This document shows, piece after piece, positions 19,479 to 63,783 of a stretch of DNA of 64,000 nt (position 1 is the first letter of the stretch; the number at the start of each line of letters is the position of its first letter). The notes beneath the pieces were generated by a model that had not been told where the DNA came from, searched no databases, and saw only the letters and a list, made by a program, of their open reading frames with translations. Origin of the DNA: a virus (taxonomy: Duplodnaviria; Caudoviricetes); IMG/VR virus record IMGVR_UViG_3300029448_000025, positions 653 through 64,652 of that record; one strand, 5' to 3'. The translations under genes and the position numbers were made by a program.

Positions 19479-19958
19479 ATGTGCGCAAAGCCCTTATTTG
19501 TCGATTACATATTGACACATGAAGACTTAGAAACGATTTGGGGTTCAGATTTACCCCTCGCTTCTGAAAAGGGCTATCCTGATTTTTTCGATAACATGGT
19601 CTATTGGCTTCTTTGGGCCAATCAAGAACCTATTGCATATACTGCTTCTTTGACGACGCATTATGACGGCAAAAGAAAGTTTGCGTTTGTCGGCAATACC
19701 TATGTGCGCAGTGAATGGCGCAGTAAAGGTTTACACTCGTTTCTTTTGAGTGAGCGCAATTCTGCGCCGCACATGAAAGACCTCGACAAAATTACTATAC
19801 TGAATCCGATTGAAGGAGTCGGTATGGCTCAATTAGAAAGGGTCGTTTCAGGTTTAGGCTATCACAGAATAGATTCTTATTCTCAAGTCGAGGACATTAT
19901 GCCTCGGCAGGTTTATATGAGCATCGAACAAAGAAACATATGGAGGCTTAATTCTTGA
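19479..19958 (+). CDS. GNAT-family acetyltransferase
   Basis: NTYVRSEWRSKGLHSFLL matches the acetyl-CoA-binding motif A. Confidence 0.65.
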   Translation: MCAKPLFVDYILTHEDLETIWGSDLPLASEKGYPDFFDNMVYWLLWANQEPIAYTASLTTHYDGKRKFAFVGNTYVRSEWRSKGLHSFLLSERNSAPHMKDLDKITILNPIEGVGMAQLERVVSGLGYHRIDSYSQVEDIMPRQVYMSIEQRNIWRLNS

Positions 19959-21172
19959 AGAAAATTATACTCGCAGATTGTTTAGATGCTTTGAAAGACA
20001 TGAAAAGTAATTCTGTTGATTCAATCGTTACCGACCCACCATACGGATTATCCTTCATGGGTAAAAAGTGGGATTATGATGTTCCTTCTGTTGAGATTTG
20101 GAGAGAGGCTTTGAGAGTCTTGAAGCATGGAGGACACCTTCTCTCATTTGCGGGTTCTCGCACTTATCACCGTATGGCGGTGAACATTGAAGACGCAGGG
20201 TTTGAAGTGAGGGATATGATTATGTGGGTGTATGGTTCGGGTTTCCCGAAGTCGCATAACATTAGCAAGGCGATAGACAAAACCGCAGGTGCAGAACGGG
20301 AAATTATAGGGTATAACAAATGGGATAATGGCGTCAATTTTTCTCATAGTGGTGGTGGAAAATACCAAGAAAAGTGGGATAAGAGGCAAAAATCACCTAT
20401 CATCGCCCCTGTTACGCCCGAAGCAAAACAATGGGATGGTTGGGGTTCAGCCCTCAAACCGGCCCATGAGCCTATTGTCGTCGCCCGTAAGCCCCTCATC
20501 GGCACTATCGTTGAGAATGTGCTTGAACATGGCACAGGTGGCTTGAACATTGATGGTTGCCGAGTCGGAGATTTTACAAATACTCAATTTTCGGGGATGA
20601 ACAGGTGGAATGATTTTAGGCATGGGGAGGGTAAATACGAAACAGAAGAAACAGTCAATGTCAAAGAAGGCAGGTTCCCTGCTAATTTCATTCACGATGG
20701 CTCGGATGAAGTAGTGAATCTATTCCCCTCAAACAAAAGCACCAAAAGACCCCCTTCCAAAAAAACAAATACAAGCAACGGTTTAACGCATGGGAAAATA
20801 AAGGGGTTGGCAACAGAACGGGGTTTCGACGATAGCGGTTCCGCCGCCCGATTCTTTTACTGCGCCAAAGCGAGCAAAGCCGAGCGAAGCGCAGGACTTG
20901 AAAACAACATACACCCAACGGTAAAGCCCGTCGCTCTGATGAAATACCTTTGCCGACTTGTTACGCCGCCAAACGGTATTGTTCTTGACCCGTTCATGGG
21001 TTCAGGAACAACAGGAATAGCGGCGTTGGCGGAAGACTTTTCATTTATAGGAGTGGAGAGAGACTCCCAATACTTTGAGATTGCGCAGAAGCGATTATCA
21101 CATATTTCAGAAGAAGTTGAGCGACATGAAGAAGTGCGCAGAAAACATGAAGAAAGGGTTGATTTATTTTGA
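19955..21172 (+). CDS. DNA N6-adenine/N4-cytosine methyltransferase (beta class)
   Basis: VTDPPY, HPTVKP, LDPFMGSGTTG. Confidence 0.93.
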   Translation: MKKIILADCLDALKDMKSNSVDSIVTDPPYGLSFMGKKWDYDVPSVEIWREALRVLKHGGHLLSFAGSRTYHRMAVNIEDAGFEVRDMIMWVYGSGFPKSHNISKAIDKTAGAEREIIGYNKWDNGVNFSHSGGGKYQEKWDKRQKSPIIAPVTPEAKQWDGWGSALKPAHEPIVVARKPLIGTIVENVLEHGTGGLNIDGCRVGDFTNTQFSGMNRWNDFRHGEGKYETEETVNVKEGRFPANFIHDGSDEVVNLFPSNKSTKRPPSKKTNTSNGLTHGKIKGLATERGFDDSGSAARFFYCAKASKAERSAGLENNIHPTVKPVALMKYLCRLVTPPNGIVLDPFMGSGTTGIAALAEDFSFIGVERDSQYFEIAQKRLSHISEEVERHEEVRRKHEERVDLF

Positions 21173-50340: not shown

Positions 50341-51073
50341 TCACTCTTTTTTAATACGCTCTAATTCTTCTGTTGCTTTATCCATTGCAACATCAACAAT
50401 TTTTTGCGCTTCTGCGTCAATATCAACATCTTCCATATAACTTCTTAATCTTTGAAAGCCAACTTCATGTTTTTCGACTTCGTGTTCGTGCGATTGTTGT
50501 ATTGCGGCTAATTGCATTAAATGCTCATGGTTGTCTGCATCACGCTCTCTTTCATGCTTTAATTCAACGGCAATGTTTTCAATTTCAATACTTTGTTCTG
50601 ATTCCCACATGCGCAAAACTGTATTTAGCGCAGGGGCGGCTACTCCACCAATAATTGCAATAAGAGCAATAAATCCATCGAGATTTGCAAGGACAACATC
50701 AGGTTTCCATATACCCATACCGACTACTGCGCCTGATGCAAGAAGCCAAAGATAAATTGCAGGAATTACTGTTCGCTTAACCATTCGGTCATTAAATGAT
50801 TGATTGTTGTTTCTTTTTTTCATATTACTCACCTTAAATTGTCATACCTGTTAAATCAACTCCGAGAGTCAATCCTAATACTGAAACAAGAATTAAACCA
50901 CCTTTGCGCAAAACTGTAATAGCAGTTGCAATTTGCGCATTTAACTCTGCAATACTAATCATCATATCAGTTTGCGCAGAAGCCATTTTTTCAATCATTT
51001 CATCATGCTTTAGTAATTTTGTTTCAACTGCGCTTATTCGCACATCTTGGACTGCATCATTCGTCGTCGGCAT
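50341..51073 (-). CDS. Two small membrane proteins (50341-50832 with 2 TM; 50834-51073 coiled coil plus C-terminal TM), holin-like candidates
   Basis: Hydrophobic segments VIPAIYLWLLASGAVVGMGIW, FIALIAIIGGVAA and GLILVSVLGLTLGV. Confidence 0.55.
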
Positions 51074-52505
51074 TTGAATCATCCTCTATTGTTTCGTTAT
51101 CCGTTGTTTCATCAGTTGGAGTTCCTTCTTGTCCGTTTTCACGGGGCAACTCGCCATTATCTGCAATTCCTTTACTATCCTTTCTAATATCGCCTTCTGT
51201 TTCATCAGGCAGGTTTACAATTTCAAGTGCTTGGTTTAAAGTAAGAATACCTGCATTGTAGCCAATGTTTGCTCTTTGCATTTTGTTAAGTCTTGTTTCT
51301 TCATCAATTGGTTCAAATTGCAAATCGGGCAAATCACTTATTCGATGGTCTATTTTTAGTAAATCTAAATGTTTACTGAATAAGGATAAAGTAGATTGTT
51401 TCAGAATACTTTGTATGCGTCTAATTGCATTACTTGCCCATAGATTAGCCGTATATGATGCGGCAAAAGTTGAACCCTTTTCTTGTCCTGCGGCAGTGCG
51501 AGGAACCTGTAAAACTGCGGCTATGTCTGCATTGATGTTATCTAAAAACCCTGATGAGTCAGGCAAAGCAGTTCTTTGGTCTATGTGCTTGATATTGACA
51601 TAATCAGGGAAAATTGGCACTTGGTCGCCTCTAAGAGCCTCCATTGTTTCAATTACTTGATTCATAATAAAAAGTAGTCTTTCTCGTTGCTCATCGGGAT
51701 TTTGTATATGTTCGACGGCTTTCATGTCAATAGTAATAAATTGCTTTGTCATAGCGTCTTCAAGTGAAATCCGATTGTTAATACTGTTGTATTTTGCTCG
51801 AATTGCTTGTTTAAGTGAAGTAAAGCGAGATGCACCCCACACGCCATAAGTAATTCTATTTTCATTATCTGTAAACCAATTACTTCTGTAATCCATTCTA
51901 AAGTGAAGTATTTCATCTGCTTTAAACTCTTGAAAGGTTGTTTCGCCTTCACGGAGATAATAGTTTTCTGCTTTGATAATCGGGTCGTTTTCATCGACGG
52001 TATCATTGATACCTCTTTCATCGTTAATGGTTATTTGCCGAATAGGGAGATTTTGCACATCTGTAATGCCCTCTTTGCCCGTTCCGACTAATTTATTGAT
52101 GTCATTGCCATAAACCATCAAGTTGCGCATTGCGCAAATTAAAATATCGTCAAAATCAAGCCTTTCGACTAATTCTTGTATTGCGTTTCTAATTCGAGCA
52201 TTGCGTGCTTTTCGGTAGTTAATAGTATAGTTGTTTGCGGTTAAGGACACTGCTCGGACTGCACCGTTTAATTCGGGGTCAAGTTTAAGCATTTCATCAA
52301 ATAATTCAAAATCATTATCAAAATTAGTATCATCTCTTAAAGTATTTGTTTCTTTAACAACATCTGAAATACCGGCCATAAGAGCAAATGGACTTCGATG
52401 GGCAACACTGTGTCTTAAATCCTCATTGCTTACAAAAGCCATAGGAACAGGTTCGGCAACATCTACTTTAGATTTGCCAAAAATAGAAAAACGAGTTCGC
52501 GCCAT
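51057..52505 (-). CDS. Portal protein
   Basis: MLKLDP.L.GAV, NLMVYGND, DEILHFR, YG.WG.S, I.AVLQVP, GILT.NQA. Confidence 0.85.
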   Translation of the reverse strand: MARTRFSIFGKSKVDVAEPVPMAFVSNEDLRHSVAHRSPFALMAGISDVVKETNTLRDDTNFDNDFELFDEMLKLDPELNGAVRAVSLTANNYTINYRKARNARIRNAIQELVERLDFDDILICAMRNLMVYGNDINKLVGTGKEGITDVQNLPIRQITINDERGINDTVDENDPIIKAENYYLREGETTFQEFKADEILHFRMDYRSNWFTDNENRITYGVWGASRFTSLKQAIRAKYNSINNRISLEDAMTKQFITIDMKAVEHIQNPDEQRERLLFIMNQVIETMEALRGDQVPIFPDYVNIKHIDQRTALPDSSGFLDNINADIAAVLQVPRTAAGQEKGSTFAASYTANLWASNAIRRIQSILKQSTLSLFSKHLDLLKIDHRISDLPDLQFEPIDEETRLNKMQRANIGYNAGILTLNQALEIVNLPDETEGDIRKDSKGIADNGELPRENGQEGTPTDETTDNETIEDDSNADDE

Positions 52506-53228: not shown

Positions 53229-53431
53229 AATGATACACAGAAACCGTTTGACTTATCAAAGTATTGGGTAATCCATACTAAAAATTATTAAGCAAACAAA
53301 ATAAAAAGTTAATTAGGGCGTTAAAATGATAGATTTTACCTTTAATGGAGTAGTTTTAATTGGCGGTAGCACACTTTTGATACTTGAGTTAATTTGGTGG
53401 GCATTAGTGTTTTTGTTTATTCTTTTTAGAC

Positions 53432-53627
53432 GAAAGAAAAAATTAAGAAAGAATAAAACGATTGACTGAATACAAATTGCTATTATTCTTTATTCTTTAC
53501 TAAGAGATAAAAAACTATTATCTAAGTAAATAATAAGCGGCCCAATATCTAAACACTTAAGAAGAATTAAAAGAATAAATCGAATAGGCTTTCAGTGCCT
53601 TGTTTATTTCTTTTTTAATTCTTTCAA
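53432..53627. repeat. AT-rich palindromic element B, inverted homolog of element A
   Basis: AAAGAATAAATCGAATAGGCTTTCAGTG...TTATTTCTTTTTTAATTCTTTCAA matches the reverse complement of 6855-6915; TATTCTTTATTCTTTACTA matches the reverse complement of 6978-6996. Confidence 0.65.
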
Positions 53628-53687
53628 AAGCATAAAAAGAATTAAATTGCGCAATACCTTATAAGCCAAACCTATTAAGTGCGTAAT

Positions 53688-54914: not shown

Positions 54915-55092
54915 TGACGAACAGTTAATCCTTACTGAAATGGGGCATGATTATGTCGCATTTAATATATTTTCAGAAGAATTAGTTATTGGCATTATGC
55001 TTAATAGAAATGAAATTGAAGAGTTATGCAACTCTTTGCTTGAATACTGTGGAATACCTGTTTTTGAGGTGAAAAACAATGATGAAGAATAG
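54895..55092 (+). CDS. Small hypothetical protein
   Basis: 65 aa ORF coupled to the terminase gene. Confidence 0.5.
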   Translation: MPIWKSDDEQLILTEMGHDYVAFNIFSEELVIGIMLNRNEIEELCNSLLEYCGIPVFEVKNNDEE

Positions 55093-56578
55093 AATAATGA
55101 CTGCTCTTAATATGGAAAGAAGCAGGTATGACATTAAACATTTTTATGAATGGCTTGGCTACAATTGGGGCGACCACATAGGAGAATGGTTAAAACTTTA
55201 CAGTGAAAGAGGCGAAAGACAAGTTCACCGTGTATGCGTAATTGCACCTCGCGACCACTCTAAATCAACAACTCTTCGAGTAAAAGTTCTTCATCAATTA
55301 CTTTTTGAAAAGTGGCGAGGTAAACCGTTTACTATTTGGTTGTTTTCCGCTAATAAAGACCTTGCGATAAACAGACTTGATGAAATAAGACAAGACCTAA
55401 AACGACATCCTGAATTGTCAAGACTTATTGATGTAACAAAAGGAAACAGATATGAGTTGCGATTAACAAACGGCGCTTGGATTAAGGCAACATCCGTTGG
55501 TTCAGGTATTCGGGGCGAACATCCAGCCGCAATTGCTCTTGACGATGTATTAGACGACCAAAATGATATGTCTTATGATATAGTCCAACAATGGTTCAGA
55601 AAAAAATTAACACCTATGCTATCGCCCGGAACTTCTATTTATTGCGTCGGAACGCCTATGTCAATGAACGATTTATACCATACTGAAATGCTAAGTAATG
55701 AGTCTTGGCAATCATGGCGTAAAGGTTCTATTGTAAATTATGACGAATGGAGAAATGACCCTGATAATGTAAAACCTGTCTGTCTGTGGCCTTCTGAAAG
55801 ACCTATTGAGTTTTTGCTTGAACAACGACAAGCAATTGGTGATTTAGCATTTGCGCAAGAATACCTTTGTAAAGTAGTCGATGACGACAGCGCAGTTTTC
55901 CCTCAACAACTTACACGCAAAAATATGAACATGGATGTTATACTGCAAAATAAAAAAATACATGACGGGCGCTATGTTATAGGCTTTGACCCTTCACATG
56001 GCATAGGAAAAGACTACACGGTTATGGTTGTTCTGCGTCAAGACAAAGAAGGCTTCATACATATTGTAAATATGTGGCGAAAAAACGATTTTCCCCCAAA
56101 TAAACAAATTGAAATGATTGGAAAGTTTAATGACGCATACAAACAGCCAACTTTTGCTTTTGAAAGCGCAGGTTTTCAATCTCTTTACAAATCTCTCGTT
56201 GAACAAAGCAAATTGACGCTCGATATGAAAATGAGCAAGGTATCAAACAAAACACTCAAGCAAGGACTACTAAATCGCCTCCGAGTATGGTTTGAACAAG
56301 AAAAAGTCGTCATACCCTATGGAAACGACGAAACAAGACGGGTTATGAGCATCCTCCTTGACGAATTGGAGTCGCACGCATGGAAAAACGGCGATATTGT
56401 CGATAAAGGCAAGCATAATGACACAGTTATGGCCTTTGCGCACGCAATAGACCAATTTAAGACAGGCTTTAACGCCGGATTAGCCATGACAACAGGCCAA
56501 ACTGACATATCTAAGTGGAACACAGCAAAAATTAACAAAAATAAGCGAGTTTCAAGCAAATATGTGCCTTTTTTCTAA
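55079..56578 (+). CDS. terL: Terminase large subunit
   Basis: APRDHSKST (Walker A), IRGEHP..IALDD (Walker B), VGTP, FAQEYLC, IGFDP...DYT, FES, HNDTVMA. Confidence 0.92.
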   Translation: MMKNRIMTALNMERSRYDIKHFYEWLGYNWGDHIGEWLKLYSERGERQVHRVCVIAPRDHSKSTTLRVKVLHQLLFEKWRGKPFTIWLFSANKDLAINRLDEIRQDLKRHPELSRLIDVTKGNRYELRLTNGAWIKATSVGSGIRGEHPAAIALDDVLDDQNDMSYDIVQQWFRKKLTPMLSPGTSIYCVGTPMSMNDLYHTEMLSNESWQSWRKGSIVNYDEWRNDPDNVKPVCLWPSERPIEFLLEQRQAIGDLAFAQEYLCKVVDDDSAVFPQQLTRKNMNMDVILQNKKIHDGRYVIGFDPSHGIGKDYTVMVVLRQDKEGFIHIVNMWRKNDFPPNKQIEMIGKFNDAYKQPTFAFESAGFQSLYKSLVEQSKLTLDMKMSKVSNKTLKQGLLNRLRVWFEQEKVVIPYGNDETRRVMSILLDELESHAWKNGDIVDKGKHNDTVMAFAHAIDQFKTGFNAGLAMTTGQTDISKWNTAKINKNKRVSSKYVPFF

Positions 56579-56700
56579 AAAATCGGCAAAAATTAAAAAA
56601 AATATAAAAATTGTGAGAGGTGGTTGGCGTGCGTAGCCCCGTCAGTATGCGCAGTTTTTGGCGCACCTAAAGCGCAGGTTCAGGGGCCGCAATTATTTTG

Positions 56701-58188
56701 CCTAAACGACGCACTGCGAGCCTGTTTGTCTGCGTGTTCTGCGCAGTTCATGCTCGCGCAGGTGCGCGTCATCACGCCACACGCCTTATGCGTCTGTTTT
56801 TCGATTTGCGCCAAAAGTTTCTGAAAGGGCCACTGAGAGCCTGTTTAGGGCCAATAATCCACTATTCAACTCAAGGTTCAGTAGTGCGAATGGCACATAG
56901 CGAGGCTGTTTGACCTTCTGCGCAACCCCAAATATGCGACCTTCTGCGAGACTCCAAGCGATTCATTCAGAAAACCACGCCAAAATTGACGCCTCAGAGC
57001 CTCCCCCATAGCCCCGCAGTCTATCGTTTAGACCACCCTCAAACGACCTTCTCAGAGTTGAAACCTCAGAACTCAAAACCGTTGCACTGCGCCCCACCTT
57101 AGAAACTGCGTGAACCGTTGTTTTCAAGTATCAAACCGCCGTTTTCCGGTTTACCGCCATACATGCCGAATATGTGCAATTTCTCAACATTGCCGAAAGA
57201 GTCCGTTTTCACCATACCGGCACTGCGGCGCAGTCTATCGAATGACTACTGAACCGATGGTTCCCCTATGGTAGCACTCCCCGCAATTTTGCGCAGAGCC
57301 TCAGTGCATCGAATAGAAAGCAACGGGGTGCGGCTATTGCATCATCGACTTTCGGCGTTTTCTGCGTGTTTTCTAAAATCGCCGTTTCCGTTCCGTTTGG
57401 GCTGTTTTTGGTTTTTCATCGAATGTCGGAAACCTGCAATTTATCCCGCCGATTCTGAAAAAAACGATGGACTGCGAAGCCGACACTAAAACCCCGCAAT
57501 CCCTAAACGATGCACTGAGAGCCTATGAGTTCTAAACGCCGCACTGCTCGACCGGCGGCCCCATGTCGGCTTGACATCGACCGGACAACAGCCCCGCAGT
57601 CATGCGTTTACCGATTCGGCCTCGCGTGCATGATGCGCGTGCGTATGCGAGATTTGGGGGCTTTGCGTGGATTGTCTAAACGATGGACTGAGAGCCTATC
57701 CTCTCTCCTGATTCGATGCCTAAACGATGGACTGCGCCGCTATTTTCCGGTTTCCGACATGACCTGAAACGACCTTTTCGGCCAAACAGCGCCGCAGTGT
57801 TGCTTTTAGACCTGTTTTCTGAAATGCTAAACGATAGACTGCGAGCCTATTGATATTCTGCTCTGCGCCGTATTCCTAAACGATAGACTGAGAGCCTGTT
57901 ATTTTCCTAAACGATGGACTGAGAGGCGGAGAACCCTAAACGATGGACTGCGAGCCTGTCGCCTAAACGCTATACTGCGCCGCAATTGTAGAGCAGTGCA
58001 TCGAATAGATTCTGCGAACACCCCTAAACGATAGACTGCGCCCCGATTGTCTCTCAGTGCGCCGTTTTTTTTCAGGAGATTTCGACAAAATCAAAACCCG
58101 CAACCGTCGAAGATGTGCATATAAGAACTGCGCCGTTTTGCTTCAAGGCACACTGCGAGCCTGTCGCCGTCGCAGTGCATCGTTTAGG
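56701..58188. repeat. Dispersed array of the bipartite motif (CCT)AAACG-N4-ACTG(C/A)G(AGCC) in the non-coding region
   Basis: + copies at 56701, 57461, 57502, 57532, 57676, 57719, 57827, 57875, 57906, 57935, 57962, 58023; - copies at 57015, 57229, 57300, 57595, 57993, 58053, 58171; further degenerate copies. Confidence 0.92.
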
Positions 58189-58256
58189 TTGCTTCTGCGC
58201 CGTTTACCTTCTCGCTTCATATACTCCCATGAGAGAGGTGAAACCGGAGAGATACC

Positions 58257-60863
58257 ATGATACAAAATATATGTATGAAAATAATGGCCTTCATCCTCGC
58301 AGTGGTGCTTTTTACCACTGCGGCGGGTGTCGGTCTTGAGCAAAACCCTTTGACTGAGGTTGAAGGAGAAGACAACATGAACAAAGAAAACGACGCACTG
58401 CGCCCCATTTGGGCAGAGTTGCCTGAACAAACGCACATCTCGCGTTCGCGAGTCAAGCGTTTTCACCGCAAGCAACAATTGCGTGAACAGCGCCCCCGTC
58501 ATGCGTTCAAGCGAGCATTGCGCCGCTTGTTTTCTTTAGGGCATCTGCGTGAAGAATCGAAAGGTTCAGGCGTTTGGATTCTTGACAAAAGAAGCACACT
58601 GCGCCGCATTTCGGACTTCTTGAGCCATCGGGTTCAAATTATCCGTATTGGCTTCGCAGTCCGTCGATTAGCGAAGGAAACCGCGAAGAAGAACGCAGAA
58701 CTCACACTCGCGAGTGATGCGTTTTCATCCGTTGAAATTGCGCCGCAGTCAAACGAATTGTTTGAATATCAGTGGGATGAGGTCTGCGAGTGTAAAACCT
58801 GCGGAGATTTCACCGATGAAGTCGATTTGACCCTTGAAAATGGGCCGCAGTGCATCGAATGTTACTTAGACGAAACCGACGCACTCACGCAGACACGCGA
58901 CGACATCGACAAATACGCAGACTGCGAGCCGGTCGATGGTCTTTTGTCAGACCTGAACCCCGACCTCGTAGAATACGGAAACGCTACACTGCGCCGCACT
59001 TTCTGCGTCGTTGCTGTTATCGCGGTTTTGTATGCTTTCGACATCACTCAATTGTCTTTCAGTCTTGCGTTTATCGGCGCAGTTCGCACGCCCAAGCCTC
59101 AATGGTTGAAGGACGCGGAGAACTCAGGCGTTGAAGTGATTTCAAAGGGTCGCAGTGTTCCGATTTCAGGCCGAAAGGAAAACACACGGGTGAAGTCCTG
59201 CGCCGCTTGCGGTTGCGATATTCCCGCCGGTCAATACTTCGCCCAACTGAATGCGAAGAAGGGAAACGGTGAACCTTTCGCCTCCTTAAAGCCACACTGC
59301 GAGACATGCACAGCCGAATATATCCAAGTTCATCAAACGATAAAATCGTATCGCTCAGGCGCACATAATGCGCCTGTCGCGAGTGCCTCGGTTTCTGAAC
59401 CTGAACCTGAACCTTTGACCGTCAATGTTCAAAACAACGCACTGCGCCCCAATTCTTTCAAGGGAACATGCGCAGTTTGTAGCGTTGAAGTTCCGTCGAA
59501 GGCGGGATTCATTCACGCAGAGAGTCCGAAAGGGCATAAAATCCGATGTGCTGAACACGCAACTGAGGCGCTGTTTATCGGTTCAAACGGTGAGCCGATT
59601 CAAGGCAAAAAGTCCAACGGCGCAAGCCGTGTGATTCCTGAACCTTCACAGGCTCTCAGTCAAGCGGTTAAGGCGCAAGTTTCTGCGTCGTTGCCATCGA
59701 CTGCGCAAGGCGATAAAATCGAACTTCTTCAAGCGTTGCTTTCAGGCGATGGTTTGAATGAAGAACAAGTGCGCAGTGTTGCGAAAGCGGTTGTTGAACA
59801 ATACGCAGAAACTGCGATTCAAAACGGCGTTCAAAACGCTTCTGCGCATGTTGAAGAACGGATTGAAAAAGTCGTTTCAGAATTGAAGGCTCAAGAAGTC
59901 ATCAAAACGCTACACATCAAGCCATCGAAGAAGGCCAAAGCGGTGAAAATATCAGGCGCTTATCATCCCGCAGTGCCGACCGTTTTCTCAATCCTGAAAG
60001 CGGGGCTTCTCAATGGCTCGCCGTTGCCTGTTTACATGGTGGGCGAAGCGGGAACCGGCAAGTCTTACGCAGTGGCTCAGGTTCAAGCAATGCTTCAAGC
60101 GGCTAAATTGCAGAGCAGTAAAGCGTATGGAGAAATCATATGCTTCGCAGATATGACACGGGGCGACCTTCTCGGTAATGTGAAGTATGGCGTGGGCGGT
60201 AAAGGTTCTATTGAATGGCAACGCAGTGGCCTTGTTAAGCCGCTTCTTGAAGGCGGCGTGGCCTTTGTCGATGAAATAGACAAAGCAGACCCCGCAGTCC
60301 TCGTTTTATTGAACGGCGTGCTTGCATCGCGAACCGTCATCAATCCGGCAACGGGTGAAGTCCTGAAAGTGCATCCTCAAGCGGTGATAATCGCCGCAGG
60401 AAACACCGGCGGTCATTCGATGGGCGGCGCTTACAAAGCGGCGCAGATTCAAGACGCCTCGCTTCTTGACCGATTCGCCGCAACCGTAGTGAAGTTTGGA
60501 TTTTCCGCACGCATTGCGGCTTCAATATGTGGCCTCAGTCATTCGATGGCCGAACCTGAAAACAGTCCACGCGGTGAACCTGCGCAGATGTCCGAGGTTT
60601 TGAAATCCTATACCGAATTGCGCCAAATTGTAGTGGGTCAAACCACTGTGCAATACAGCAACCGCGCCCTTCTTCATGCGTCGGTTTTGGCTAAAGACGG
60701 GTGGACTCTGAACGCCATTATTGGTCGATGGGTTGAACCGCTTGATTCTGAACTCCGCAGAGAGGTTTTGAATCACTTCGGAATGATAGACGGCGAGGCT
60801 CTTTCATTGGTTCCGCAAGGTGTCTTTGAACCTGAATCCGTAGATATTGCGGGAGGCGCTTAA
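58257..60863 (+). CDS. MoxR/CbbQ-type AAA+ ATPase with N-terminal hydrophobic segments and Zn fingers
   Basis: VGEAGTGKS, FVDEID, AAGNT, LLDRF; CKTC...CIEC, CAAC...CETC, CAVC...CAEH. Confidence 0.85.
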   Translation: MIQNICMKIMAFILAVVLFTTAAGVGLEQNPLTEVEGEDNMNKENDALRPIWAELPEQTHISRSRVKRFHRKQQLREQRPRHAFKRALRRLFSLGHLREESKGSGVWILDKRSTLRRISDFLSHRVQIIRIGFAVRRLAKETAKKNAELTLASDAFSSVEIAPQSNELFEYQWDEVCECKTCGDFTDEVDLTLENGPQCIECYLDETDALTQTRDDIDKYADCEPVDGLLSDLNPDLVEYGNATLRRTFCVVAVIAVLYAFDITQLSFSLAFIGAVRTPKPQWLKDAENSGVEVISKGRSVPISGRKENTRVKSCAACGCDIPAGQYFAQLNAKKGNGEPFASLKPHCETCTAEYIQVHQTIKSYRSGAHNAPVASASVSEPEPEPLTVNVQNNALRPNSFKGTCAVCSVEVPSKAGFIHAESPKGHKIRCAEHATEALFIGSNGEPIQGKKSNGASRVIPEPSQALSQAVKAQVSASLPSTAQGDKIELLQALLSGDGLNEEQVRSVAKAVVEQYAETAIQNGVQNASAHVEERIEKVVSELKAQEVIKTLHIKPSKKAKAVKISGAYHPAVPTVFSILKAGLLNGSPLPVYMVGEAGTGKSYAVAQVQAMLQAAKLQSSKAYGEIICFADMTRGDLLGNVKYGVGGKGSIEWQRSGLVKPLLEGGVAFVDEIDKADPAVLVLLNGVLASRTVINPATGEVLKVHPQAVIIAAGNTGGHSMGGAYKAAQIQDASLLDRFAATVVKFGFSARIAASICGLSHSMAEPENSPRGEPAQMSEVLKSYTELRQIVVGQTTVQYSNRALLHASVLAKDGWTLNAIIGRWVEPLDSELRREVLNHFGMIDGEALSLVPQGVFEPESVDIAGGA

Positions 60864-60948
60864 GCGTAAACTGCGCAAGCATATGACGGCCAGTTTATAC
60901 TTGCCCGATGCTACGCAGTCAAACGAAAATGGAGGTGAAAAAGTGAAT

Positions 60949-61962
60949 ATGAAACATCAATTTCAAGGTCGGAATAAGAAGCGGCTTGAGAACCGACATG
61001 TCGATGATGAAGGGTGCGAATATGGCACTGCGACACTTGGAGGTTCTAAGTGCGTGGTTTCGATTGCTCCGAGTCATGGCGCAGTCATCCGTTCATTGCA
61101 TGGCGGGTCTAAGATTTCAGGCGGCGAACCGCATGACATCAACTCCCCGTATCAATCATTTCATGGGCGCAGTGCATCGAAAGAAGAAGTTTACGCAGAG
61201 GGTTTGAAGGGCGCAAGTCATCAACCTGATGCCGACGCCGTTTCAAAGCACGCAAAGCGATTCGATGCCATCAAAAGCCTTGTTTCAAAGTCCGTGAAAA
61301 TTGTCCGAAAAACGGAAGACTTCGCCGGTAAAGTCGTTGGACTTGACATCGGCGCGGCATTGCGTGGTGATGCGTTTATACGCAACAAAAAGCGACGGCG
61401 CACTCAATCCGAATGTGTCGCCATATTTGTTCCCGTGAATGCGGTCGGGTCGGTCGATTCTCGCATTTGTCAAATCCGCAGTAGTGCGGCGTTGGCATGT
61501 GCGCAAATCCTTGAAGACTCAGGCCAACCCGTTGAAGTCTATGGGCTTGCGTGGTCTTGCGGCGTGTCTATCGGTTATGACGGTCTAAGCGTGGTTAAGG
61601 TCAAGGGTTCAAACGAACCTTTCAACCTCGGTCAAGCGGCTTCGGCTCTGTCTGCGTGGTCTTGGCGTTCTCTGATTTTCGGGTTCCGTGAACTCGGATT
61701 CGCAAACGCCCTTGAGCATCGAATGACCGACGGCGGCGGCAGAAGCATGGTTCCAACTAAGCGATTCTGCGCCGAACTTGCCGACCTTCTCGGATGTCAA
61801 AAGTTCGCCTCAATTGCCCATATTCCCCGACGGGGAACCCGATGGACTACGGCCAACGCTGAGAAAGAAGTCGAGCAATGCACAGACGCCCTAATCGAAG
61901 CACTGAAAGGCATTATGAAGAATGATGATGCCTTTTCAGGTCTGAACTACGGGAGAGACTGA
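60949..61962 (+). CDS. vWA-domain partner of the AAA+ ATPase (degenerate MIDAS)
   Basis: Directly after the AAA+ gene; LDI.AAL.G, VAIFVPVNAVGSV, LE.SG.PVEVY, VKVK...P; SD GGAGGTGA. Confidence 0.7.
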   Translation: MKHQFQGRNKKRLENRHVDDEGCEYGTATLGGSKCVVSIAPSHGAVIRSLHGGSKISGGEPHDINSPYQSFHGRSASKEEVYAEGLKGASHQPDADAVSKHAKRFDAIKSLVSKSVKIVRKTEDFAGKVVGLDIGAALRGDAFIRNKKRRRTQSECVAIFVPVNAVGSVDSRICQIRSSAALACAQILEDSGQPVEVYGLAWSCGVSIGYDGLSVVKVKGSNEPFNLGQAASALSAWSWRSLIFGFRELGFANALEHRMTDGGGRSMVPTKRFCAELADLLGCQKFASIAHIPRRGTRWTTANAEKEVEQCTDALIEALKGIMKNDDAFSGLNYGRD

Positions 61963-62548
61963 GAACCATTGAAAACGGTGGACTGCAATACATTTGAACA
62001 ACTTTAGAAAGTCAAAAAGGAGGTGCGAAAAAGAAGGAAAAGGATAGATTGAGAGATGTGGCCCCGTGTTTCTCAAATCCAAAACATTGCGCAACGGGGC
62101 ATTTTCTCATGCCGATTGGCTCGCAGTGTAGCGTTTAGCCACTGCTTTCTTGCCTCGGTGATTCTCCGCAGAAGTGGCCGATAGGCTCGCAGTCAAGCGT
62201 TTTTACCGCCGCCGCCATTCGACGTGCGATTGATTCTGCGCCGTTCTGTTTTTTCCGGCCTGAAATCTCAAACCTCAAATCTCAAATCCAAAACGACCCC
62301 GCAGTTTTCAATGCGTGGATTTTGCGCTCTACTGTTTCTGCGGAGTTTGAAATCCCCACCTAAATGCGCCCGAAAATACCACAGAAATATTTTGCCCTTT
62401 CTCGCACATGCCTTGCGTGTGCCTTGCGTGCGTGCATCATGTGCGCCTTTTATTTTTTATCGCATGACCCGCATATGTTGGGTTTCAGGCCAAAAATGGG
62501 GGTTTTGGGGCGGTCATTTGATAAGGTGTGGCGCTTTCGCTTAGGTTG

Positions 62549-63783
62549 ATGAGAACGAAAACTCAGATGATAAACAAGGCGAAAAGAGCGATTGAAGAGG
62601 GAACGGTATTCACATACCTGTCCTCGCATATGTTGGGGGTTCCGGCTGAGAGGTTGCACCGTTTCACGGTTCAAGGTTTCTGCAATCAATACGGCCCTGC
62701 TTGGGCTGTCATTCTATGCGACTGCGCAACCGGCGAAGAAAGGAAACTGGTTTTAGAAAACTTCGCAAAGCGATATACCGAGGTGAGCGAATGAGTTTCA
62801 AGCAATGCTGTGTAGCCTGTGGGCGTGAAATGCGCTACAATCCCGCACACTACCTATTCGCTTGTCGAACCGATGGTTGCGAGTGGATTTATCAAGGTGG
62901 CATATTCTTCAATACAGCCGATGATTCACAGGCGGTGGTCGCATGATTCTTTACATGTGCGGCGCATGTGGGGCGGATTACACGCTACCGAGAGATTTTG
63001 AAGCATTGAAGAAGTGCGCAAAGAATTGCGGTGAACCGCATTTGATGATGGAGGAATCAGAATGAGGGGCGGAATCATACGAAGCGCAGACCTTTGCGTG
63101 TGTCGCACAGGTGCGAAGGAGCAGTTTTACACCCTCTACATCGAGGTTCAATGTGTGCGCACTACTGCGCCGAAAGGCGTTTCATACTCGTCATGGTTTG
63201 TTCAGAACCTTGCGCATAAGAAGGAGGATGCTATCGCTAAAGCCGAGGAACTCGGCACAGAATTAGAGGCATGGGGCCACTATGATGAAATCACACTCTC
63301 CTTTCACGCAGAACCACGCCCGATATACACGCGCTATGTTGCCTTTGGCGACATTGAAATGAAAATGTCAAAATCACGCAAAGTCTGGTGGGGCAACACC
63401 AACGAAGAGTTTTGGGATGCGTGGCGAGCAGACAAGGCCGCAGTTAAGGCCGCAGGTTACTGGGTCAAGCGCAACGAAGACGGCAAATGGCTTTTGTTCC
63501 GCAGAGTCGAAGCCGATGAAATCGAATGGAGGCATGAATAATGAAGAAGGAAGGGCAGATATTTACAGCATGGATTAGCGGAACTGCGGTAATCGCTCGC
63601 AGAACTACGCTTAGATGCACCCCTTGCGAAATCAGAGTTCAGGGCGAACCTGTATCATGGGCCTATAACATGGCGAGTGAGGCGGAAACTACGCACTACG
63701 GCTTTCTATGCAAAGGTTGCGGGAGAGATAGCACGCTCTCAACCGATGAAATCCGCAGAATAAAAAAGGGAGTGGGCGAATAA
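62549..63783 (+). CDS. Start of the early micro-ORF operon (62549-62794, 62791-62946, 63062-63541, 63541-63783)
   Basis: TTGATAA box at ~62518, coupled ORFs, SD sites, CxxC motifs. Confidence 0.65.

Follow-up and report, generated by a model that had tools for sequence, protein, structure and literature searches.

A dense array of a bipartite motif after terL in an uncultured marine virus shares its site with the MC1 operator of marine group II archaea and may act as a platform or sink for a host DNA-binding protein

Short DNA sites in multiple copies are known from several systems. The stoperators of mycobacteriophage L5 are asymmetric sites that are dispersed in short intergenic gaps and set in one orientation relative to transcription, and the iterons of plasmids and of P1 are asymmetric sites of ~20 bp that lie on both sides of a gene, some of them inverted, and titrate their binding protein. 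The datA locus of the E. coli chromosome is a cluster of few sites that acts as a sink for DnaA. The cytomegalovirus (CMV) immediate-early enhancer and the 21-bp repeats of simian virus 40 (SV40) are host-factor sites multiplied upstream of viral genes, and we know of no archaeal counterpart of enhancers of this type, nor of any host counterpart of the heptamer CCTAAAG of phage T7. In the T7 genome (NC_001604), this heptamer occurs 11 times in nucleotides (nt) 1-340 and 5 times in the last 270 nt, always on one strand. Phage T5, according to a preprint (bioRxiv 10.1101/866236), has a non-coding region of 1,662 bp with repeats and palindromes in conserved order and with pairs of DnaA boxes; binding of this host protein there is proposed to hold the viral DNA. 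Here we analyse an array of a bipartite motif in the non-coding DNA that follows the large terminase subunit gene (terL) of an uncultured virus (Duplodnaviria; Caudoviricetes) known from the single-contig, 64,652-bp IMG/VR record IMGVR_UViG_3300029448_000025. Bases 653-64652 of this record, a stretch of 64,000 nt, are called the window, and positions are given in the numbering of the window. The same site stands before the gene of the chromatin protein MC1 in marine group II archaea (MGII, Poseidoniales), and the array may serve, on the viral DNA, to gather a DNA-binding protein of the host.

The array lies between the terL stop codon (56578) and the start codon of the next gene (58257), in a non-coding stretch of 1,678 nt that holds no open reading frame (ORF) of more than 80 amino acids, no tRNA and no Rfam family, the single match of a permissive Rfam scan being at chance level (E 2.2). 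An initial annotation of this DNA had reported a dense array of the motif AAACGNNNNACTGMG (AAACG-N4-ACTG[CA]G) here, and counting bears this out, with 19 exact matches in the window against a mean of 0.11 and a maximum of 2 in 100 dinucleotide shuffles; 15 of the 19 (11 on the plus and 4 on the minus strand) fall within 56704-58185. When sites were selected by TAAACG only, N4-ACTG followed in 14 of 15 cases inside 56.7-58.21 kb and in 2 of 33 cases elsewhere, both of the latter (59073 and 62137) lying in the zone into which the array extends. Thus, the two half-sites co-occur independently of the search pattern. A 26-nt weight matrix, which was built from the 19 exact copies of the window and is in this sense virus-trained, gave 43 matches of at least 10 bits in the window as compared with 2 in one shuffle, and 21 copies of at least 12 bits within 56600-58300 (15 plus, 6 minus), at centre-to-centre distances of 23-237 nt.

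The repeat unit is ~24-26 nt long with the consensus CCTAAACGATrGACTGmGAGCCTrT, and conservation continues 3' of ACTGMG, where 18 of 19 copies have C at +18 and 16 of 19 have T at +21. The fixed half-sites of the first description are seen in the footprint as AAACG and ACTG; its freely variable 4-nt spacer, on the other hand, could not be upheld, as the N4 is skewed to AT[GA]G, and the unit is longer than had been assumed. Similarly, the core of the array matches the first boundaries of 56701-58188, whereas the proposed end at 58188 does not, since copies continue to ~59.7 kb and two more are found at 62.1-62.2 kb. Outside 56.7-62.2 kb only 4 matches of at least 10 bits were present, which speaks against a dispersal of the stoperator type. 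The copies are degenerate, occur on both strands and are separated by gaps of ~0 to 210 nt, which sets them apart from clustered regularly interspaced short palindromic repeats (CRISPR), and TRF found no tandem array in the stretch with the sole exception of the A-rich run 56588-56612. The conserved positions, the half-site footprint and changes of orientation among relatives (see below) suggest protein-binding sites rather than a tandem duplication, as had been supposed from the window. The convergent pair ACTGMG-N10-14-CKCAGT is present twice in the window (58035 and 58152) against 0.04 expected, both times at the 3' end of the array. Over 53-63.2 kb, neither sigma-70-like promoters (21 against 13.5 +/- 3.8, none of them within 56.6-58.2 kb) nor intrinsic terminators (14 against 12.8 +/- 3.3) are enriched.

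A search of IMG/VR with the terL protein gave 80 related loci, among which 15 (L001-L014 and L039) have a terL identity of at least 77%. The motif is found downstream of terL in all 15 wherever sequence is available, and only this clade and one further contig (L086) have arrays, of 8-27 copies, as against 0-2 copies in the other loci. Seven genomes of the clade have 17-23 copies each in the first 1,750 nt after terL, against a maximum of 3 in 200 shuffles, so that relatives do carry analogous arrays, as the initial annotation had led one to expect. Summed over these seven genomes, which are related and not independent, 100 copies are on the plus and 35 on the minus strand. Many copies share their offsets from the terL stop codon (126/127, 254, ~396, ~495, 821, 865, 937, 1112 and others). 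In the aligned columns of the seven genomes, an alignment that was possibly guided in part by the motif itself, identity to the window is 0.52-0.68 in AAACG, 0.65-0.73 in ACTG and 0.68 at the C of position 21, while it is 0.34-0.46 in the N4 spacer and ~0.30 in the flanks. The first copy is on the plus strand in the window, L010, L011 and L014, and on the minus strand at the same position in L039 and L009; the occurrence of either orientation at one position points to a site in duplex DNA and not to an RNA signal. Judged from these comparisons, the array is old, is under selection and works as duplex DNA. Expansion of a neutral or selfish short repeat without function would be consistent with the variation of copy number and exact positions among subclades; yet positions are kept at terL identities of 77-82%, the footprint is restricted to the half-sites, and the same site is kept in the host before one particular gene, and this already disfavoured explanation is the least probable of those considered here.

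A scan with one genome per prokaryote species gave no match to the exact 20-mer with the AT[GA]G spacer among these species-representative genomes. With the spacer freed, more than 120 stretches were found, and ~17 of the 80 titled matches listed belong to metagenome-assembled genomes (MAGs) of Poseidoniales/MGII type, their host labels being taken from the record titles. These MAGs have one copy each, mostly intergenic, and no similarity to the virus. Among 301 genomes of the order that holds the Poseidoniales, a strict pattern matched 58 times, in 49 genomes, and its reversed control once, and a relaxed pattern gave 36 matches in 5 genomes against 5 for the control. A host genome of 1.5-2.2 Mb thus has 6-10 sites, far fewer than the 15 exact relaxed matches of the core array or the 19 of the whole window. 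Intergenic positions account for 18 of the 31 host sites examined, mostly 26-148 nt upstream of a start codon and in both orientations, and the intergenic sites bear a 3' flank of the viral type. In one host genome, three copies stand within 70 nt, spaced by 29 and 27 nt like those of the viral core, before an 87-aa MC1 gene (Pfam E 3.8e-28); MC1 follows the site in two further genomes and, by coordinates, in a fourth. Contamination of MAGs is possible, and the MC1 loci include contigs of 0.45-1.9 Mb. On this evidence from sequence, the bipartite site AAA[CG]G-N4-ACTG[CA]G is a host element that is rare in host genomes. Its presence in MGII, concentrated before MC1, agrees with the earlier suggestion of a decoy or platform for a host regulatory protein, while the alternative suggestion of a decoy for a Type-I-like restriction system found no support. 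The name magrovirus, also used in the initial annotation, finds support only in the broad sense of a virus with an MGII host, which rests on the shared motif.

The MC1 gene is single-copy in 61 of 61 genomes. With the viral matrix, 11 of 30 loci have a match of at least 12 bits in the 220 nt before MC1, and the other 81,432 nt of those loci have none. The motif core is found upstream of MC1 in 28 of the 30 loci in a fixed arrangement, viz., a plus copy at about -140, a plus copy at about -95 and, 12 nt further on, an inverted copy. Downstream of this operator follow the A-rich ACTATATAC, ~35 nt, GGAGG and ATG. Anchoring on ACTG[CA]G only recovers the left half-site: of 63 sites, 53 have G at -5 and 54 have A at -8. 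Of the 30 MC1 loci, 16 have a single convergent pair ACTGMG-N10-14-CKCAGT, always at the same place. The best thermosome paralogue served as negative control, and none of its 30 loci has the motif upstream. It is established that virus and host share the site, that the site is conserved in both and that it lies close to the promoter in the host.

The core of the motif is also enriched over the viral genome, in agreement with the initial annotation. Outside 56501-59700, there are 380 occurrences of CTGCG/CGCAG as compared with 109.6 +/- 10.7 in dinucleotide shuffles, and ACTGCG/CGCAGT occurs 121 times outside the array against 26.2 +/- 4.2. In 33 ORFs, CGCAG occurs 160 times against 54.7 +/- 5.8 and TGCGC 142 times against 40.1 +/- 4.5 when synonymous codons are shuffled within each ORF, an excess of 2.5-3.5 fold above protein sequence and per-gene codon usage (z 9-22). 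CTGCG/CGCAG and TGCGC/GCGCA are the top over-represented pentamers in two genomes of the array clade (3.5-4.4 fold), while CTGCG/CGCAG reaches 1.65 fold in an array-less sister virus, and host DNA (303 kb) shows no enrichment of these words (CTGCG 1.13 fold, TGCGC 0.78 fold). CGCAG is twice as common on the coding strand, and 54-77% of the occurrences of the core words in ORFs share one codon phase. Codon usage, which this phase bias had brought up as the cause, was ruled out by the synonymous-codon shuffles; since the excess survives them, the signal is at the level of DNA and specific to the virus. It is compatible with recruitment of a protein over the whole viral genome and remains unexplained.

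Based on the similarity of site, layout and position in virus and host, we hypothesize, as the best of the explanations considered, that the array offers a platform or sink to a DNA-binding protein of the host, which would be the regulator of the MC1 gene or MC1 itself, a proposal that we regard as evenly balanced between right and wrong. The virus would have multiplied the host MC1 operator to ~20-40 copies, mostly in one direction, and the array closes with two or three host-like convergent pairs before the cobS-like gene and a TATA-like element that precedes it. The array would capture the protein that binds the MC1 operator when infection begins, and to a greater extent once the viral genome has replicated; this protein would be loaded onto the viral DNA and drained from its few sites in the host, which would change the expression of MC1 and of the viral genes adjoining the array. 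Candidate binders are a dedicated regulator and MC1 itself, which would then control its own promoter; we infer both the binder and the effect of its binding. A more specific version, which we put forward only tentatively, holds that the array is a trap and nucleation centre for MC1. MC1 would then bind a 15-bp bipartite site as a monomer, bend the DNA and autoregulate through the three-copy operator, and the virus would have copied this operator, amplified it ~tenfold and seeded its whole genome with the core word, such that viral DNA would be preferentially coated and folded by MC1 and the host nucleoid depleted.

Several observations weigh against a platform or sink for a host protein. At the place of the array, the array-less sister clades hold one motif copy or a forest of hairpins, and since they replicate and package without the array, its function is accessory or replaceable. 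The figure of 11 of 30 MC1 loci comes from a matrix trained on the virus, and the host copies differ from it in their 3' part. The A-rich ACTATATAC of the host loci is, in our reading, probably the transcription factor B recognition element (BRE)/TATA region. Other host sites are sporadic, being found at LonB, L7Ae, HMG-CoA synthase, TFB/aconitase, PhoU/PHO4 and UvrA. Thermosome was considered as a further member of the regulon and dropped as a single case that did not recur in 30 loci. The preferred site of Methanosarcina MC1 is, according to PMC3928310, asymmetric and 15 bp long with an A-tract and a second contact ~10 bp off; it is thus like the viral motif in layout only, and its letters differ. 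Finally, the binder may be encoded by the virus itself and copy the specificity of the host protein.

The layout of the 3' end of the array bears on a further explanation, in which the array would be a purely cis-regulatory, multi-operator promoter borrowed from MC1, without titration, and a host regulator would drive the cobS/cobT-like operon and the small genes past 62.2 kb. After the last inverted copy (58163-58188), the element CATATACT follows ~33 nt on and then ATG at 58257, an order resembling that of the host; most copies point to the gene, like host copies A and B, and two further copies lie in the next non-coding stretch, ahead of downstream genes. MC1 is, besides, strongly expressed, MC1b being within the top 5% of transcribed genes of a Poseidoniaceae MAG (PMC9723583). 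However, host promoters use 1-3 copies, and at least 20 copies over 1.7 kb, up to 1.5 kb away, exceed the need of one promoter; the copies moreover run on into the coding region, and the core words are enriched genome-wide in the virus. A promoter of this kind fits the 3' end of the array and not its size, and we consider it unlikely as an explanation of the whole.

Outside the array clade, sister clades whose polymerase and terminase are 60-72% identical are without the array. A non-coding stretch of 1.1-2.3 kb after terL is common to all clades with a terL identity of at least 67%. In the clade of 74% terL identity (L015-L017, L020 and L022), one full motif copy is found on the minus strand, ~140-155 nt after the terL stop, and it adjoins the palindrome TTTAGG-N4-CCTAAA; this single site may be the ancestor from which the array grew. 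Sister clades of 70-75% terL identity fill the place with perfect hairpins and palindromes of unrelated stems, as in L027/G002 (contig 18.0-22.8 kb), L031:7491-9794, L024, L022, L029, L046 and L069. In G002, 50 of 99 perfect hairpins (stem of at least 6, loop of 4) fall in 4.7 kb after terL, while genome-wide counts are 13 in the genome of the window and 19 in G005. Loops of the form C-TAAA-G, C-TTTA-G and CTAG are frequent, and TTTAGG-N4-CCTAAA recurs 110-185 nt after the terL stop in the hairpin-bearing sister clades. These stable hairpins, together with the excess of plus-strand copies in the seven related genomes, i.e., on the strand of the flanking genes, would be in line with a long non-coding transcript that acts as a protein-binding RNA sponge. 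We nevertheless consider action as RNA highly improbable, in view of the conserved minus-strand copies and the flips of orientation at one position, the host copies upstream of promoters in both orientations, and the lack of any Rfam match.

All clades of at least 67% terL identity also share a short box (GGTGGTTGGCG, ~28 nt, TTTTGG), which follows the A/T-rich run 40-50 nt past the terL stop. It has 11 invariant columns among 21 sequences, for which RNAalifold gave no common fold, though a strong hairpin between its parts is seen in 7 of the 21. This box, at 56619-56661, is a better candidate than the array for a core cis element, which might be a terminator or a pac-like site or mark where a small RNA begins.

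The position after terL had led the initial annotation to place the array at the likely end or entry region of the genome, an assignment that the contig data do not sustain. The viral contig circularises, as merging its 9-nt shared ends yields a 188-aa ORF that spans the junction of end and start, and two complete relatives have end overlaps of 123 and 105 nt that map to coding DNA at ~49.8 kb and ~12.9 kb of the window genome; these overlaps are assembly circles with arbitrary breakpoints. Parts of the stretch are carried by 20 public DNA runs, no RNA run being among the listed carriers, and contigs from four public runs span the whole array, including one of 9,939 nt and a virome contig of 2,610 nt. 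This evidence consists of assembled contigs, whose circular closure and arbitrary breakpoints neither prove nor rule out genome ends. In the hairpin-rich clades, contig ends of relatives cluster 100-220 nt after terL; we rejected these as genome termini and take them for places where hairpins broke the assembly. A packaging or DNA-entry structure at the junction of a concatemer, of the kind of the T7 heptamers or the T5 injection-stop region, would suit the place of the array directly after terL on the circular map, just as the right end, terminal repeat and left end of T7 follow gene 19. It would also suit the non-coding stretch shared among clades and the order conserved in relatives, and it has real analogues in T7 (11 and 5 heptamers) and in T5 (bioRxiv 10.1101/866236). 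Such a structure is distinctly improbable all the same: the contigs give no sign of ends, the element common to all clades is the short box and not the array, and the likeness of CCTAAA to the T7 heptamer extends over six letters and is possibly due to chance.

The coordinates of the array, its copies and the flanking elements are collected in Table 1. The plus-strand copies inside the extension of the AAA+ protein translate in one frame as N-x-x-L-R. The second small cluster is present at the matching relative place in L001, L039, L006, L009, L010 and L014. The stretch 61963-63060, in which it lies, is a second one of ~1.1 kb without a convincing gene; short tandem repeats (AAATCTC four times and TGCCTTGCGTG twice) are found there, and the word CTGCGCCGTT recurs in it and in the array.

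Table 1. Array copies, flanking elements and neighbouring genes in the window
Feature	Position	Strand	Remarks
Large terminase subunit gene (terL)	55079..56578	+	phrog_38, E 1.2e-40; Pfam TerL_ATPase match weak; upstream border of non-coding stretch
A/T-rich run	56579..56615		directly after terL stop; at same place in relatives
Conserved box: GGTGGTTGGCG, ~28 nt, TTTTGG	56619..56661	+	separate element upstream of array
Core array, 21 copies of at least 12 bits of ~26-nt unit	56701..58188	15 +, 6 -	by weight matrix
Copy, 36.8 bits	56701..56726	+	opposite orientation at this position in L039, L009
Copy, 33.2 bits	57007..57032	-	
Copy, 25.7 bits	57459..57484	+	
Copy, 35.9 bits	57502..57527	+	
Copy, 26.7 bits	57587..57612	-	
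Copy, 35.7 bits	57675..57700	+	
Copy, 37.3 bits	57719..57744	+	
Copy, 22.7 bits	57785..57810	-	
Copy, 37.0 bits	57826..57851	+	
Copy, 36.7 bits	57875..57900	+	
Copy, 32.1 bits	57906..57931	+	
Best copy, 39.2 bits	57935..57960	+	
Copy, 31.3 bits	57962..57987	+	faces weak minus-strand copy ending 58009
Convergent pair, 35.0 bits (+) and 22.4 bits (-)	58023..58070	+, -	cores ACTGCG-N12-CTCAGT at 58035-58058; geometry as in host MC1 operator
Convergent pair, 15.7 bits (+, weak) and 29.8 bits (-)	58140..58188	+, -	cores ACTGCG-N13-CGCAGT at 58152-58176; last pair before next gene
CobS/MoxR-like AAA+ gene, 868 aa	58257..60863	+	AAA_5, E 2.1e-17; phrog_249
~12 weaker copies, 12-27 bits	58385..59672	both	inside N-terminal half of AAA+ ORF
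DUF7192 gene	60847..61962	+	PF23822, E 1.9e-9; phrog_1909
Second small cluster, 2 strong copies at 62139(-) and 62205(-), 34.5 and 30.1 bits	62114..62205	-	non-coding, after DUF7192 gene

The genome encodes tailed-virus proteins, including, besides terL, a portal (51057-52505), a tail tube and a tape measure, and replication and repair proteins, including a family B polymerase, an RFC-like clamp loader, an ERCC4-HhH nuclease and a Mre11-like phosphoesterase. No DNA match to terL and the array was found among INPHARED phages, and the closest INPHARED proteins are distant (identity of at most ~32% for terL, AAA+ and PolB). The virus has no MC1 gene, and the small ORFs near the array match no Pfam or PHROG family. 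The AAA+ protein has an N-terminal extension of ~230-450 aa (~400 aa in the window) in the array clade only, with two hydrophobic segments and Cys-rich CxxC ribbons by alignment, which is common to just 5 proteins in a set of 5.8 billion; the AAA+ forms of array-less relatives are 477-498 aa long and encoded ~5.5 kb from terL. As a candidate binder of the array, the extension gave Atlas scores of at most 0.77 and no lead. The DUF7192 gene is likely the CobT-like partner of the AAA+ gene; a viral cobS-cobT pair is treated in PMC8651126. For an N6/N4 DNA methyltransferase gene at 19955-21172 (Pfam E 3.4e-34), tblastn gave no counterpart in either of the two complete relatives used for comparison, and the gene looks like a recent insertion in the window genome.

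The neighbouring genes bear on the possibility that the copies are iteron-like sites for an initiator or partition protein encoded by the virus, making up an origin, a copy-control locus or a centromere such as incC/incA of P1 or parC/sopC of plasmids. Many asymmetric copies of ~24 bp beside the A/T-rich run 56579-56615, clusters on both sides of a gene pair and a local dip of the cumulative GC skew nearby are features to be expected of such a locus; the iterons of P1 likewise flank repA. The flanked genes here are, however, a CobS/CobT-like pair that is common in tailed viruses, the turn of the skew coincides with a turn of gene orientation, and the ORFs scanned, which include the small ORFs in part, gave no match to a Rep, ParA, ParB or integrase family. 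For a partition centromere in particular, neither ParA/ParB nor ParM/ParR was found in the same ORFs, and TRF gave no tandem array. Spacing is irregular (23-237 nt), 6 of the 21 copies are inverted, the sister clades with a 60-72% identical polymerase and terminase do without the array, and the motif is a host promoter element, so that we regard an iteron-like locus as quite improbable. An alternative candidate for the origin is the A/T-rich divergent intergenic region 53229-53678 between the structural (minus) and terminase-side (plus) blocks, which contains several short repeats and a weak motif copy at 53608(-) and lies close to the minimum of the cumulative GC skew.

The shared cis element ties an uncultured clade of marine viruses of 60-65 kb to MGII without CRISPR spacers or cultures. 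It also points to a conserved MC1 operator in an uncultured archaeal group that ranks among the most abundant in the surface ocean, and the literature searched describes no regulatory element for this group. That literature gives no account of the array, of the MGII MC1 operator or of decoy arrays in viruses of prokaryotes, an earlier mention in the first magrovirus papers or their supplements being possible, and it describes no virus of bacteria or archaea with an amplified copy of a host operator. If the array were indeed a sink or loading platform, it would represent a takeover strategy that is not described for viruses of prokaryotes, and if it were an MC1 trap, the virus would be the first known among those of archaea and bacteria to carry an array of decoy sites taken over from a host promoter. 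In vitro testing is within reach, as motif, operator and MC1 gene are all short enough for synthesis.

Among the described systems, the viral stretch is like the untranslated repeat region 3, or injection-stop region, of T5 (bioRxiv 10.1101/866236) in being ~1.2-1.7 kb of non-coding DNA with direct and inverted repeats whose order is conserved among relatives while the neighbouring genes are not. It differs in that T5 has many families of repeats along with palindromes, whereas a single unit of 24-26 nt dominates the viral array, that the T5 region lies within a long terminal repeat, whereas the array is known from a circular contig, and that the host of T5 is bacterial, both the host protein and the motif being different. 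The T7 heptamers resemble the array as numerous copies of a short motif, set in one orientation in non-coding DNA that comes after the large terminase gene in the concatemer, and their function is unsettled, but their unit has 7 nt and stands at proven genome ends, while that of the array is bipartite and 15-26 nt long. Iterons flank the gene of their own Rep, unlike the copies described here, which flank CobS/CobT-like genes and have a motif from a host promoter. The enhancers of CMV and SV40 are eukaryotic, take up several different factors and span a few hundred bp, unlike the array. The locus datA also differs, in being chromosomal and having few sites, but the principle proposed for the array would be the same as that of datA, viz., a cluster of sites that lowers the free pool of a DNA-binding protein.

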